Shown here in pieces: positions 3,537 to 60,622 of a DNA stretch of 64,000 nucleotides; position 1 is the stretch's first letter, and the number at the start of each line of letters is the position of its first letter. Source of the DNA: a virus (Duplodnaviria > Caudoviricetes); the IMG/VR virus record IMGVR_UViG_3300021255_000054. One strand, given 5' to 3'. The notes under the pieces were generated by a model. That model searched no databases. It had not been told where the DNA came from and saw nothing but the letters and a program-made list of their open reading frames with translations. Made by a program: the position numbers and the translations under genes.

Positions 3537-3851
3537 ATGATTTGGAATTTTATTATTGCTACTGAGCATTATAAGGAAGACTGTAATATATTAGACTAGG
3601 CATTTGGTAAGGGTAGAAGAACTAGTGAGATTGCTGAATATTATACTGAATGGATAACTATTACAGTAATTAATTGGGAAGGACATTCTATAAATTAGTT
3701 TCGTGGTAGGCGCGCGGATGTATTATACGTACCTTTTAGCGCGTTTAATAATGATGAATTATATTATACTATCTTGCAGCCAATCACTGCTACAATTCGT
3801 ACTACGGAATCAATGATGGAACGTATTAAGTATTATTTGACTAAAAAATAA
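3537..3851 (+). CDS. hypothetical protein (2 TAG=Gln)
   Basis: SD AAGGAG, ATG 3537, TAA 3849-3851. Confidence 0.7.
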
Positions 3852-53794: not shown

Positions 53795-53867
53795 ATTTAC
53801 AGAAGGTAAGGAAAGGAACTTATCTTCTGTAAATTATTTTTTTCATTACATAAGGAGGTAATGAGAT

Positions 53868-54256: not shown

Positions 54257-54341
54257 TGCCCTGCGGTCCGTGGCGGACAGACGGTCTCTAAAACCGTGGC
54301 CTCTGAAGCAAACGAAGTTGGTTCGATTCCAACCAGGGCAG
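54257..54341 (+). tRNA. amber suppressor tRNA (anticodon CUA), probably Gln-charged
   Basis: Acceptor TGCCCTG/CAGGGCA plus G73; anticodon arm ACGGT-CTCTAAA-ACCGT; T arm GTTGG-TTCGATT-CCAAC; 19-nt variable region. Confidence 0.9.
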
Positions 54342-54632
54342 TTGCGGTATGTGCTTAATGAGTACGTACTTTGTAAAGGAAAATGTAGTTCAGCGGGATG
54401 CTGGCTTATACTAGTTGACATTTTTTTTAATACAATCTCCAGTAAGAGCAAAAAACTGCCACGGGCTGGGTGAAATGCCCCGGGTCCACCTTCCTTGCCT
54501 ACGGTGAGTGTCCGTTCAAGGCAGAAAACATGCGGTCCGGCCGGACGCGACGATGGCTAGTTTGGGGTTTTACGCCACGCTCTTTAGGCAGCGCAACCCG
54601 CTATGACGAGATCTTAGCACGCTTGCCTATAT

Positions 54633-56532: not shown

Positions 56533-56561
56533 TTGACTTATATCAAAATTTTTGATATAAT
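56533..56561 (+). promoter_or_regulatory. sigmaA promoter directly upstream of CAGCAA element 1
   Basis: TTGACT-17-TATAAT with TGn. Confidence 0.8.
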
Positions 56562-56572
56562 AAATATGAACA

Positions 56573-56681
56573 AAGGCTCCTGCAGCAAATTTTCTTTGGA
56601 CTGTAAATCCCCGTGTCATTGGTTCGATTCCAATCCCGAATAGGGTAGCTCAGCTAGGTAGAGCAGGTAATTAGGAGTCTT
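56573..56681 (+). ncRNA. CAGCAA element 1: circularly permuted tRNA-Tyr(GTA)-like RNA
   Basis: Stem AAGGCTCC/GGAGTCTT; order is anticodon loop, T arm, CCC-GAATA-GGG, D arm. Confidence 0.8.
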
Positions 56682-57002
56682 GTAACTCAAACTGCGGCAA
56701 TAAGCCGAATCCTTAGCCGTTGTGCGTGCTACTCGTATAGTAACACAATAGTCAGCGGTTAGTTGGAGACCGTAGTGCGGCAACGGTATACAAAAACGCA
56801 CCGTGTGGTAGAGATTGCCCGTTAGGTTCCTCACTACTAGCAACGATAGGGCATAAATAAAGAAGTCTCCTAACTCTAATATGCTCCTGAACAAGAGCCG
56901 GTGGATCTTACGGTGAAAACCCGTAGTAAAGAACGACAAAACTGCTCACTTGCGCAAGGGGTTTATGGTTATCCTCGCTTTGGCGAAAAACCTTATCAAT
57001 AT

Positions 57003-57073
57003 CGCACGATAGTGTAAAGGTAAAACCTCTGGCTCATAACCAGAAGATCTGGGTTCGATTCCCAGTCGTGCTA
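57003..57073 (+). tRNA. tRNA-Met(CAT), initiator-like 1:72 mismatch
   Basis: Cloverleaf, loop CTCATAA, C1/T72. Confidence 0.85.
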
Positions 57074-57498
57074 CGACGCGATGCTAGTAGCGTAAGAAAA
57101 GACTAGCCGTGGCTAAGCGCAGAATCGTATTGGCGCTAGAGTTCTTGGACGCAAGATAGCTCGCACTTCTGAATGGCCAATCAGAAGTCATTAAATTGGG
57201 CCGAAAAACAGGAAGGCTGAGGAAAATGGATTGGAAGTCCTGGGCAGCTCTTAGGGTCGCGCCCTAAACTGGAAAACCAAAGCAGCTTCATCTACTGCTC
57301 CTGTCACAATGTGTAGGCCGAATTATTTCACTCGCAAGGCGCGTGAAGCCAGCGCAAATCTGGCTGAGTGGCTCCGCGGAGATAACCGCGGCGTAAGGTA
57401 ACTGAAATGCAAACCAGCGCAGATACATGACCTGCGCAGTAGAAATTAAAGGTGCCGCGCTGATAGACCGCAAGTTCGCAATAGTCTATTATTTATAT

Positions 57499-57576
57499 CA
57501 TCTATGTAGCTCAGAGATAGTAGAGTGCTCCCGCAGTAATGGGAGAGGTCGAAGGTGCGAATCCTTTCATAGATGA
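57499..57576 (+). tRNA. atypical tRNA with 8-nt anticodon loop (GCAGTAAT)
   Basis: Good acceptor, D and T arms; CTCCC/GGGAG stem; no U33. Confidence 0.6.
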
Positions 57577-57632
57577 CTTGTGTAGACATCACACATCGGT
57601 GCCATACTGCCGAAATAATGAAGTATGGGCGC

Positions 57633-57703
57633 GCGATTATAGTGTAGTGGTAACATAGGTGCTTGCCATGCACCTGTCATGGGTTCGAATCCCATTAGTC
57701 GCT
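57633..57703 (+). tRNA. tRNA-Gly(GCC)
   Basis: Cloverleaf, loop TTGCCAT. Confidence 0.9.
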
Positions 57704-57706
57704 CTT

Positions 57707-57822
57707 TAGACATATCAGCAATCATTCTTGCTAGAGGAGCCCGTTCAGTGTTGGTTTAAATCCAACCCACCCGACCATCGGGTGGTCGCTCAATTGTTAG
57801 AAGCACGGTAAAAGTATGTCTA
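57707..57822 (+). ncRNA. CAGCAA element 2: permuted tRNA-like RNA with internal CCA
   Basis: Stem TAGACATA/TATGTCTA; T arm, CCACCCGA-CCA-TCGGGTGG, D arm. Confidence 0.78.
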
Positions 57823-57828
57823 GTTTTT

Positions 57829-57900
57829 GGCCTTATGGTATAGTGGTAATTACGTAGCCCTGTCACGGCTAAGACCGCAGTTCAATTCTGCGTAAGGTCG
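57829..57900 (+). tRNA. tRNA-Asp(GTC)
   Basis: Cloverleaf, loop CTGTCAC. Confidence 0.9.
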
Positions 57901-58258
57901 CATAGGTTGATTTTGAAGTCCTTTCCTAAATTGGATGGAGGGAACCCAAGCTAGCAAAAAACACGTCCTACAGTGGTGTGCCCGGGTTAGCACACATTAA
58001 AACTGTCGCCACGGTTAATGGTTCAAATTCTGCCGGCAATAGCGAAACAATAGAAGTCCCGCAAGGTGAAAGCGTTCCAATAGGATGTTCGGCGGCAAGT
58101 TTTTTATGGTACATAAGTCAGCCCGTTAGACTTTAAATGGCGGGACACTGTCCGACCAAGAGTTTGTATTTGTCGCAAATTATGTCGTTAAACTGTCCCC
58201 AAAAATACTCATTCACCTTAGTATTTTTGGGTTACTCATCACAAAATATTAAGGAGGA

Positions 58259-58756
58259 ATGAAAATGAGTAATCTAAAAACTAGACAAATTACAGGTATC
58301 GCTATCTTAACTGCGCTTTATTGTGTATTAAGCGCAATGATGAAGATCCCATTTATAGGTGCAATTTCTCTTGATTTGGGGTATATTGCACTTACAGTAG
58401 GATGCACGCTATTTGGCCCTTGGGCCGCTGTTATTGGTGCTGTAGGATGTGGACTTGAAAGTATTCTTTTTTCGCCATATGGCTTCAGTATCAGTTGGTT
58501 CGTAGCAAATTTAATTATCGGCCTTGGATGCGGAATCGTGTTCAAGAAAACCGAGAATATTTGGCTACGAATTGCCGCAATAGTAGGATTCGTTGCGGTA
58601 GGTATGCTTGGCGCGAAAACTGGTATTGAGTGCTACTTGTATCATATTCCATTTGCAGTTAAGATTGTAAAAAATGCAGTAGCATTTGGCGTTGATACTA
58701 TTACAATGCTGATTGGTTTAAGTATTAGTAATAGAGTAGTAAAATATTGGAAATAA
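58259..58756 (+). CDS. ECF transporter S component (substrate-binding membrane protein)
   Basis: Multiple TM helices, AxxxA in TM1, IP...LFGP..A..G pattern. Confidence 0.8.
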   Translation: MKMSNLKTRQITGIAILTALYCVLSAMMKIPFIGAISLDLGYIALTVGCTLFGPWAAVIGAVGCGLESILFSPYGFSISWFVANLIIGLGCGIVFKKTENIWLRIAAIVGFVAVGMLGAKTGIECYLYHIPFAVKIVKNAVAFGVDTITMLIGLSISNRVVKYWK

Positions 58757-58828
58757 AAATATTTGACTTAAAATTAAATTTGATATATAATTATTATATA
58801 AAAGAGAGATAATTTTTCTCTCTCAAAT

Positions 58829-58902
58829 GGCCCGGTAGCTCAGCCCAGCAGAGCGGCTGCCTGTTAAGCAGCATGTCCCAGGAGCAAAGCCTGGTCGGGC
58901 CG
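58829..58902 (+). tRNA. tRNA-Asn(GTT), atypical T loop
   Basis: Loop CTGTTAA; T loop AGCAAAG; promoter at 58763-58791. Confidence 0.8.
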
Positions 58903-59053
58903 CATCCCATCTAACGGGAAATAATTTAGGTTAGATGCTTATAGGTAAGCTATACGGGTTTCGGCGCTCGTAAGCCAATAGTGCAAGCCGCTTCGAAAGA
59001 CGTGACGGTCATTCGATACTTTTCAGCAGGGCCGGAACCTCCCTGCTGCTTAT

Positions 59054-59127
59054 GCCCGATTGGTGTAATAGGTTAGCACAGCACCCTTTCAAGGTGCAGA
59101 CGTAGGGTTCAAATCCCTCATCGGGTA
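59054..59127 (+). tRNA. tRNA-Glu(TTC)
   Basis: Cloverleaf, loop CTTTCAA. Confidence 0.9.
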
Positions 59128-59132
59128 CTATA

Positions 59133-59208
59133 TAGGCGCGAGCAGCATGATATTTATAAGAATTATTTATTTGATGAACTTCTTATTGGTTTTTGTTATT
59201 TGCGCCTA
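59133..59208 (+). ncRNA. CAGCAA element 3 (CAGCAT variant, AU-rich hairpin cargo)
   Basis: Stem TAGGCGCG/TGCGCCTA. Confidence 0.55.
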
Positions 59209-59319
59209 GCGACCGCTAACATGGATTTTGCAGAGGTAAACTACCACCGACTTATTAGGTATGTGGCACAGTGGAATGCGGTATAGAAAAAAGCAAAGTA
59301 ACCTCTGTTCCATAGCCGC

Positions 59320-59393
59320 AGACACGTCAGCAACTATCTTTTAATGCATCAAGAATTAAGCACCGGGTCGGCTCCGGGAAGATAAGCGTGTCT
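59320..59393 (+). ncRNA. CAGCAA element 4 (D-like and T-like hairpins)
   Basis: Stem AGACACG/CGTGTCT; inner TATCTT/AAGATA; CCGG-GTCGGCT-CCGG. Confidence 0.65.
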
Positions 59394-59455
59394 AGTATTT
59401 GATTTTAATTAAAATTATGTTATAATTATTATAGTAACAGGAAAGGAAGTAAGAA

Positions 59456-59668
59456 ATGCGTAATCCGAAGCGAATCAAACCTTATTGTGATGTACTTGCT
59501 ACTTTATGGCAGACTGTACCTGATCTTCGTTTAACTCAGTTTATGTATACTCTGATGAATGGTTGGAAAGAAAAACATGGTTCTGATGCTTTTTATGTAG
59601 AAGATGAAGCATTTCTTGCTTTTTGTCTTGAATATTTGAATGAAATTACTGGAGATAGTAATGAATAA
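59456..59668 (+). CDS. small phage protein (MRxPxRI...W..PDLR.Q motif)
   Basis: ORF track; promoter upstream. Confidence 0.75.
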   Translation: MRNPKRIKPYCDVLATLWQTVPDLRLTQFMYTLMNGWKEKHGSDAFYVEDEAFLAFCLEYLNEITGDSNE

Positions 59669-59885
59669 TCCGGGTAAACCTGTAGCTCAATTAAAAGGTA
59701 AAAAAATAGTACATATTTATAGTTCTGCTTACGCCGCGGCAAGACATACTGGATTGTCATATAGTCATATACAAGATACTTGTCATAATAGGCGATGTGG
59801 TGTAGGTGGTTATAAGTGGCGCTATGCAACAGAATTAGAAGCAAAATATGCTCATTTATATAATGATAATACAGAATCCACTTGA
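59661..59885 (+). CDS. stand-alone NUMOD1-like DNA-binding domain
   Basis: KPVxQ...YxSxxxAAR...I...C...GGYKWRY. Confidence 0.7.
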   Translation: MNNPGKPVAQLKGKKIVHIYSSAYAAARHTGLSYSHIQDTCHNRRCGVGGYKWRYATELEAKYAHLYNDNTEST

Positions 59886-60294
59886 TATGGGAGTGACTAG
59901 TGGTTCAAGTCCACGCAGGCCGCAGGATACAGGGTATAGAACAACGTGAACTATACTTATGCGGCAGTGCAATCGGAGCGAGCACTTGGGAGTCGTGATC
60001 TACCATTTAAATAAAAACCAAATTGAGAAACAGTGAAAAGGAGAAATTAATATGACGCCGGTGTATATTGTCCCATCACCAAGAACGATAGCTGAGTCAT
60101 GGTGTGTACTTGGAATTATGTTTCTTTTACTTGTTGGGGTAGCAGTGTATTATTTAATCGAAAAAAGAAAAATAGAAAAAATAATTAAGCATCCGAGACT
60201 TAAAAACGTAAGAACTAAGTGATAAGATAGATAGTGCGGTGGCCGGATAGGCAAGAAAATAATATGTAGGGTGCAAATCCCCACCTGTATTTAT

Positions 60295-60371
60295 CGAGCA
60301 TTGGCACAATTGGTTAGCGCACAGAGCTGATAACTCTGAGGTTCTTGGTTCAATTCCAAGATGCTCGACCA
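60295..60371 (+). tRNA. tRNA-Ile(GAT), CCA encoded
   Basis: Cloverleaf, loop CTGATAA. Confidence 0.92.
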
Positions 60372-60478
60372 CCTAGAAGCGAAACTAGGCAAATCTCGTG
60401 TGGTGAGCGAGACATTAACACACAGTTCACCAGCTGTTCCGGACAGCCAACGCAGCTATGCGACAAATAGTCACGTGT

Positions 60479-60549
60479 AGGGGAGTAAGATAATGGTAGT
60501 CGCGCGGTCCCCAAAACCGCTCGTGTTGGTTCGAATCCAGCCTCCCCTG
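60479..60549 (+). tRNA. tRNA-Trp(CCA) with C33
   Basis: Cloverleaf, loop CCCCAAA. Confidence 0.8.
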
Positions 60550-60553
60550 CTTA

Positions 60554-60615
60554 AAGACTCGTCAGCAACTTTTCAAGCATTGGACTTTTAATCTAACTAG
60601 CTATAAACGAGTCTT
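60554..60615 (+). ncRNA. CAGCAA element 5 carrying a tRNA-Lys(TTT) anticodon stem-loop
   Basis: Stem AAGACTCG/CGAGTCTT; TTGGA-CTTTTAA-TCTAA. Confidence 0.72.
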
Positions 60616-60622
60616 GTTTTAT

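Follow-up and report, generated by a model that had tools for sequence, protein, structure and literature searches.

Handle-bearing elements in the tRNA array of a rumen phage

The 64,000-nucleotide (nt) stretch analyzed here, referred to below as the window, belongs to the virus record IMGVR_UViG_3300021255_000054 and corresponds to bases 111290-175289 of a complete rumen phage genome (189,572 bp, with direct terminal repeats). In the right part of the window, tRNA genes, small open reading frames (ORFs), and structured RNAs form a + strand array. Among the tRNAs lie five elements that share a helix joining their ends and, just inside it, the motif CAGCAA; this shared part is called the handle, and the enclosed remainder the cargo. 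A first-pass annotation, made from the letters alone, had described these elements with CAGCA(A/T) and a G just after the 3' strand. All five were found where it had placed them, on the + strand and with that G in every copy. Five was an undercount for the genome as a whole, which carries eight handle-bearing elements on one strand, all in the tRNA region and within 11 kb. Two of the additional copies came from a whole-genome scan, and the third, which has a mismatch, was recognized by reading the sequence. The elements and their promoters are as follows (L001 is the same genome beyond the window end):

56573-56683, + strand: element E1; handle AAGGCUC / GAGUCUU, spacer CUG, CAGCAA at 56583-56588, 3' GU; cargo a tRNA-Tyr-like body with an anticodon arm (56598-56612, loop CUGUAAA), a T arm (56618-56634), a sealed 3-bp acceptor (56635-56645), and a D arm (56648-56664)
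57707-57824, + strand: element E2; handle UAGACAU / AUGUCUA, spacer AU, CAGCAA at 57716-57721, 3' GU; cargo a permuted tRNA-like body with a T arm (57750-57766), a 7-bp acceptor hairpin (57767-57785, loop A-CCA-U), a D-like arm (57788-57804), and a 4-bp stem CCGU/ACGG leading into the handle
59133-59210, + strand: element E3; handle UAGGCGC / GCGCCUA, spacer GAG, variant CAGCAU at 59143-59148, 3' GC; cargo an AU-rich hairpin
59319-59396, + strand: element E4; handle AGACAC / GUGUCU with an outer C-A mismatch, spacer GU, CAGCAA at 59328-59333, 3' GU; cargo two hairpins, UUAAU..AUUAA and CCGGG..UCCGG
60554-60617, + strand: element E5; handle AAGACUC / GAGUCUU, spacer GU, CAGCAA at 60563-60568, 3' GU; cargo a Lys(UUU) anticodon-arm look-alike at 60580-60596, UUGGA-CUUUUAA-UCUAA
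L001 1612-1679, 3587-3681, and 3685-3805, same strand: the out-of-window elements E6, E7, and E8, E7 being the one at 3685-3805
56533..56561, + strand: sigma-70-type promoter (TTGACT, 17 nt, TG-TATAAT) with 11/12 consensus matches and an extended -10
L001 3546-3574: equal promoter before E6, a consensus match only, like that of E1

The handle common to all elements reads 5'-W-AGRC-N-C-(N)NA-CAGCAA ... G-N-GYCU-W-GU-3'. The helix joining the ends is 7 to 10 bp long, so that the shared stem proposed earlier stands and its length of 7-8 bp does not. Likewise, the covariation attributed to the stems holds for the inner three to four pairs only, the outer AGRC/GYCU being conserved instead. Counting a 7-bp stem, the unpaired spacer before CAGCAA is 2-3 nt rather than the 1-2 nt first given. 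Whole-genome base shuffles predict 0.34 such sites on both strands together, against the 7-8 found. Folding z-scores are -4.4 for E2 as a whole element and -4.8 for E3. Strong sigma-70-type promoters end 11-12 bases 5' of E1 and of E6, and, judging from the consensus match, transcription from the promoter at 56533..56561 would start a few bases before E1. A mobile element resembling a miniature inverted-repeat transposable element was ruled out, as the inner stem letters differ and covary, the terminal repeats are not uniform, and no transposon-type ends were seen.

The cargoes listed above are also as first described, namely permuted tRNA bodies in E1 and E2, a Lys anticodon arm in E5, two hairpins in E4, and an AU-rich hairpin in E3. 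In E1, the handle is grafted into the anticodon stem of the tRNA-Tyr-like body. A module of T and D arms with a closed acceptor, of the type found in the bacterial Y RNA family YrlA, is present in E1 and E2 and absent from E3-E5. The orthologue of E5 in a related phage (locus L002, 12271-12334) keeps the same handle and flanks around a loop CUGUUAA, the Asn anticodon; the anticodon displayed by E5 appears to have switched between relatives (Lys versus Asn). Outside the window, E7 contains a near-complete tRNA-like body with a poor acceptor stem (Rfam tRNA, 43 bits at L001 3727-3798) and the anticodon loop UUUUAGA, whose anticodon UUA would read UAA. A comparable odd tRNA was called by ARAGORN in the related locus (L002 14743-14814).

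The handle accompanies DUF2828 genes across phages

A gene encoding a DUF2828+DUF7788 protein (95.8 and 150 bits, respectively) lies at L001 8349-9950, 9 kb past the window end and on the same strand as the elements. The route to it led through relatives of a 179-aa ORF of the array to related contigs that carry the same RNA family together with a DUF2828+DUF7788 gene. The first-pass annotation had named a DUF2828-like protein among the partners to look for, along with TROVE/Ro60, RtcB, and RNA ligase. DUF2828 and an RNA ligase, the latter near the genome start, are indeed encoded; in Pfam searches, TROVE (PF05731) detected neither the DUF2828 protein nor any other gene of the genome, and RtcB (PF01139) was absent from it. 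Flanking the DUF2828 gene are an AAA_33/KTI12 kinase (polynucleotide-kinase-like), a Metallophos phosphatase, and an RlaP nucleotidyltransferase, which together form an RNA-repair gene cluster.

The association between handle and gene was quantified in 80 unrelated IMG/VR loci picked via the DUF2828 protein alone (protein identity, 37-77%), using a scanner that accepts a stem of at least 7 bp, a spacer of 0-3 nt, and CAGCAA, with eight scrambled hexamers as controls. Handles numbered 168 on the gene strand versus 14 on the opposite strand, and the control hexamers gave 4-28. The distance from handle to gene peaks at 0-1 kb upstream, with 45, 28, 13, 10, and 4 copies per successive kilobase, most copies lying within 0-3 kb. 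Arrays of two to four handles abut the DUF2828 gene in cultured phages of very different bacteria: Escherichia coli EC6 (Felixounavirus), Listeria WIL-1, Mycobacterium Faith1, Staphylococcus 6ec, Campylobacter CP8, and Enterococcus 113. Handles also occupy the intergenic space beside the DUF2828 gene in two further metagenomic contigs with distant homologues (38-39% identity). The gene family itself is large: clustering at 50% identity leaves more than 6,000 clusters, and in GenBank it turns up in 706 phage records under the names RNA-binding protein, Ro-like RNA binding protein, or DUF2828.

When anchored at CAGCAA, the elements of these phages have a fixed register, W-A-G-R-C-N-C-N-N-A-CAGCAA followed by a G-poor tract (162 elements). 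The 3' side reads G-N-G-Y-C-U-W-G-U, a G follows the stem in 144/164 elements, and in many 3' strands this G leads into a U-rich run. The eighth base pair is not conserved, being unpaired in 29/53 cells. A covariance model, proposed at the outset as a check, was built from 66 short elements of other phages with this genome left out. It recovered E6, E5, E8, and E3 (E5, 30.0 bits, E = 1.6e-4; E3, 22.0 bits, E = 0.013) and nothing else at E < 0.1 in 189 kb; insertion penalties made it miss E1, E2, E4, and E7, whose cargo is long. In 14 further loci, 10/10 of its matches fell on the gene strand.

The cargo is variable in the wider family as well. T-arm-like hairpins occur in 38/164 elements, versus 2.3 in shuffled cargo, and anticodon-arm-like hairpins in 51/164, versus 13 in shuffles; the anticodons most commonly displayed are Lys UUU, Tyr GUA, and Cys GCA.

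The position of so many copies immediately upstream of the DUF2828 gene on the same strand invites the reading that the elements are cis-acting signals rather than trans-acting RNAs, that is, autoregulatory leaders of the DUF2828 mRNA or, given that the window elements sit between tRNAs, processing or termination punctuation of the tRNA operon. The G and U-rich run after many 3' strands would suit such a role. However, the elements studied here are 5-16 kb from the gene, two of them have their own strong promoters, and in EC6, Faith1, and 6ec the handles are located downstream of the gene. It is hard to see what a leader would gain from variable tRNA-like cargo, and no short terminator-type hairpin was found at the elements. 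We regard a cis-acting role as highly unlikely.

Two loci add observations of a different kind. In Listeria WIL-1, the three CAGCAA elements and the DUF2828 gene are preceded, about 650 nt upstream, by a match to the ROOL RNA (L096 5308-5859; 87 bits, threshold 99), and genes for RtcB-type and Rnl-type ligases are found downstream. A further AT-rich contig (L011 3943-4499) has neither tRNAs nor evident phage genes but does carry a DUF2828 gene, with two divergently transcribed CAGCAA elements just upstream of it; the pairing of handle and gene may thus occur outside phages too.

A predicted Ro60-like partner protein

Ro60 and its Y RNAs form a classic RNA-protein particle whose role in bacteria is only partly understood. 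An AlphaFold model of the DUF2828 protein, based on 69 diverse homologues, has a predicted local distance difference test (pLDDT) score of 91.5. In Foldseek, its 12 best matches in the PDB are all Ro60 proteins, aligned over the full length with template modeling (TM) scores of 0.43-0.58, and are followed by von Willebrand factor A (vWA) domains carrying a MIDAS (metal ion-dependent adhesion site). The Ro60 matches include 1yvr (E = 5e-9, TM 0.56), 2nvo, and the phage structures 9l5y and 9kop. In the Ro60 layout, which the model shares, a HEAT-repeat ring precedes a vWA domain that bears a MIDAS motif; the corresponding DxSxS motif is invariant in the 69 homologues. By sequence, the protein gave chance matches only in the PDB. 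As modeled, the DUF2828 protein is a divergent branch of the Ro60 fold.

Since the handle adjoins this gene in phages of very different bacteria, the elements are most probably small noncoding RNA genes, the RNA partners of a Ro60-like DUF2828 protein of the phage. The CAGCAA RNAs would then be to the DUF2828 protein what Y RNAs are to Ro60. A 7-bp helix joining the ends and closed by a C-G pair, followed on the 5' side by NNA-CAGCAA and a G-poor single strand and on the 3' side by an unpaired G(U), would together make up the putative protein-binding site. The Y-RNA-like particle that the first-pass annotation had put forward, with no partner in view, has gained support from the presence of the DUF2828 gene, from its predicted Ro60 fold, and from the way the handle travels with this gene family across phages.

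Relation to known Ro60 RNAs and to Class I RNAs

Y RNAs are encoded beside Ro60 genes and often carry tRNA-like modules, and Ro60 binds them at an end-joining helix with a conserved 5' strand, next to which YrlA (RF02553) has the 5' motif GNCGAAN0-1G (Chen et al. 2014, PMC4201824). The Ro60 of Thermus phage phiLo binds two upstream Y-like RNAs, Yrl1 and Yrl2, with the motif CGAA (PMC12135203). The system described here resembles these in several respects: a protein predicted to combine a ring with a vWA domain, RNA genes near the protein gene on the same strand, pairing of the 5' and 3' ends into a helix next to which the 5' strand keeps a conserved motif, a tRNA-like domain whose acceptor is sealed, and an RNA-repair gene context. 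It differs in its motif, which as anticipated is not that of YrlA (W-AGRC-N-C-NNA-CAGCAA in 162 elements, with NNA-CAGCAA in place of GNCGAAN0-1G or CGAA), in its 2-8 copies per genome, and in its interchangeable cargo, which includes bare anticodon arms. Unlike the YrlA setting, there is no TROVE gene nearby, and the linked gene is DUF2828, at 5-16 kb here and 0-3 kb in most other phages.

No Rfam 15 family takes the elements at its gathering score, whether over the window region (scanned up to E = 10) or over four cultured-phage loci (up to E = 1). Below threshold, the only matches over the elements are to YrlA and to Class I RNAs. Against a YrlA threshold of 69 bits, E1 reaches 36.5 (56610-56671, model positions 23-88 of 114), confined to the T-acceptor-D part of the tRNA-like domain, E2 gives a weak full-length alignment of 16.3 bits, and E3-E5 have no match. 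Alignments of twister-sister, hammerhead, and tRNA models to E2 and E5 were rejected as noise (10-16 bits). Neither was a CAGCAA family with DUF2828 described in the literature searched. The CAGCAA RNAs thus apparently form a widespread, Y-RNA-like class that had not been described before and is linked to a divergent branch of Ro60.

A further precedent concerns the Ro60-like gp130 of Felixounavirus Bas63, which counters the Ppl defense and is encoded directly upstream of a tRNA stretch, some of whose "tRNAs" the authors guess to be Y RNAs (PhageMaP preprint, PMC11482910). Felixounavirus EC6 has four CAGCAA elements among the corresponding tRNAs. The two accounts differ in that the preprint defines no RNA family and the anti-Ppl effect is protein-only.

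A second resemblance, which did not figure in the first-pass annotation, is to the Class I RNAs (RF01414), reported as unique to Dictyostelia, transcribed from a Dictyostelium upstream sequence element (DUSE) promoter, and accumulating in a mature form about 60 nt long (Kjellin et al. 2021, PMC7919456). That family has a 6-bp end-joining stem and an 11-nt motif with C6, C9, A10, and A11 invariant, starting with AAG and ending with CUGU (PMC7919456); in Dictyostelium discoideum the pattern is GTTGRCCTTACAGCAA ... GTCAACTG (PMC5054030). Like them, the phage RNAs are multicopy and can be about 60 nt long, with a covarying helix of 6-7 bp joining the ends and a variable remainder. In both, an adjacent unpaired motif ends in CUUACAGCAA at an equal distance, with an AAG start and a CU(N)GU end. 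The phage consensus N-C-W-Y-A-C-A-G-C-A-A agrees at positions 6, 9, 10, and 11, with the start WAG and the end CUWGU. RF01414 aligns over its full length to two elements of Staphylococcus phage 6ec (22.4 bits, E = 0.04, below the threshold of 41.5); it does not match E5 at E up to 10 and has no match in the window scan. The stem letters differ (GUUGRC in Class I versus WAGRCNC in phages), as do the settings, eukaryotic with a DUSE promoter versus phage genes with sigma-70-type promoters. The likeness is genuine where the handle is concerned, and the below-threshold scores do not establish family membership.

It is important to consider several points that weigh against the elements being partner RNAs of the DUF2828 protein. 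Stem covariation is strong, yet the elements had been selected for pairing and the count is not independent; therefore, the case rests on the strand and control counts instead. By the criteria applied, 94/164 cargos have no tRNA arm, and in the window genome the RNAs are not beside the DUF2828 gene. Expression evidence consists of metatranscriptome contigs, which show neither RNA ends, strand, nor true expression and may reflect DNA carry-over. Moreover, gp130 alone, in T7 or on a plasmid, restores plating on Ppl (PMC11482910), so at least the anti-Ppl activity needs no CAGCAA RNA; judging from its genus and position, gp130 would be a DUF2828 orthologue. Finally, the only direct binder reported for Class I RNAs is Rnp1A, a protein with an RNA recognition motif (RRM) (PMC7919456).

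The last two points, a Dictyostelium Class I RNA bound directly by an RRM protein and a gp130 that acts against Ppl without the RNAs, would also be explained if another host or phage protein (RRM-type or Hfq-like) bound the handle and the linkage to DUF2828 reflected shared regulation or a shared pathway. This has very little probability in our view, as DUF2828 is the sole gene common to all linked loci in phages of Firmicutes, Proteobacteria, Actinobacteria, and Campylobacterota, and Ro60 proteins are known binders of just such an end-joining helix with a conserved 5' strand (PMC4201824, PMC12135203).

Possible function in tRNA-centered conflict

If the DUF2828 protein holds the handle, as the genomic linkage suggests, the variable cargo would be free to display tRNA parts, be it a T/D-arm elbow, an anticodon arm, or a nearly whole, non-chargeable tRNA body, and the particle could engage tRNA-recognizing proteins through them. 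As a decoy, such an RNA might lure host anticodon nucleases; as an adaptor, it might assist the repair enzymes that the phage itself encodes (kinase, phosphatase, RlaP, and ligase). Both options would amount to a conflict over tRNA integrity, a function to which we give slightly less than an even chance.

The same repair genes can be read differently. The handle could be a processing signal and the elements split or permuted tRNA precursors; after excision of the handle, kinase, phosphatase, and RNA ligase would rejoin the ends into functional tRNAs (Tyr, or a suppressor with the UUA anticodon from E7). The tRNA bodies of E1 and E2 are indeed permuted, with the opening in the anticodon stem or loop, the acceptor hairpin of E2 encodes A-CCA, E7 has its near-complete body with anticodon UUA (43 bits), a polynucleotide-kinase-like protein, a phosphatase, and an RNA ligase are all encoded in the genome, and neither the window nor L001 contains a tRNA-Tyr according to ARAGORN. 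Nevertheless, most cargos are incomplete as tRNAs: a tRNA body is lacking in E3 and E4, E5 consists of the anticodon arm alone, the armless cargos noted above make up 94/164, and the acceptor of E1 is a sealed 3-bp hairpin. Furthermore, the handle also flanks the gene where neighboring tRNAs or ligase genes are few or missing (Faith1, 6ec), and the look-alike Class I RNAs keep their handle in the mature form of about 60 nt. Processing into working tRNAs is therefore a very improbable role for the handle, and partner RNAs of the DUF2828 protein are the preferred reading.

The Y-RNA-like particle would be a second, much larger Ro60 branch with its own RNA handle and a swappable cargo of tRNA parts. 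CAGCAA RNAs would account for many unannotated gaps in phage tRNA arrays. Their occurrence in model phages (Felix O1-type coliphages, Listeria P100-type phages, staphylococcal phages, and cluster L mycobacteriophages) makes binding, structure, and the effect on tRNA-targeting defenses directly testable. For the amoebal Class I RNAs, which have been without an assigned function since 2004, a concrete hypothesis would also arise. In its widest form, which we hold to be rather unlikely, the CAGCAA handle would mark an ancient RNA-protein module of phages, giant viruses, and eukaryotes, in which the Class I RNAs would be the Y-like RNAs of a eukaryotic DUF2828 protein and the interchangeable phage cargo, whether tRNA elbows or anticodon arms (Lys, Tyr, Asn, Cys, and Ser), would serve as programmable decoys or adaptors against tRNA-cutting host defenses.

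Other features of the array

A search of viral contigs found no relatives of a neighboring AAA ATPase; in the GenBank collection it is about 42% identical to Bacillus phage proteins, an identity that makes a Firmicutes host likely for the window phage. The array also contains the following:

53797-53864: Rfam cow-rumen-4 match (63.7 bits), adjoining the suppressor tRNA
54257-54341: suppressor tRNA with anticodon CUA, labeled Pyl by ARAGORN
54346-54490: Rfam cow-rumen-3 match (100.6 bits), adjoining the suppressor tRNA
57500-57575: tRNA-like gene with an anticodon loop of 8 nt, found by Rfam only (43.1 bits) and not called by ARAGORN
58259-58756: gene for the S component of an energy-coupling factor (ECF) transporter (PF07155, 55 bits), inside the tRNA/RNA array

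To the right of the window (L001 4141-5230), some apparent in-frame TAG codons are visible by eye in ORFs, which suggests TAG recoding in part of the genome.

Three large noncoding stretches between tRNAs, at 56690-57000, 57075-57495, and 57905-58200, match no Rfam family. In four gut metatranscriptome assemblies (sheep and other gut RNA libraries), their contig depth is 100-750, versus about 9 for nearby ORFs, and is far above that of E1-E5. Two short cores, at 57448-57489 and 58006-58039, are shared with other contigs whose sequence differs on both flanks, and the three stretches are possibly abundant structured RNAs.

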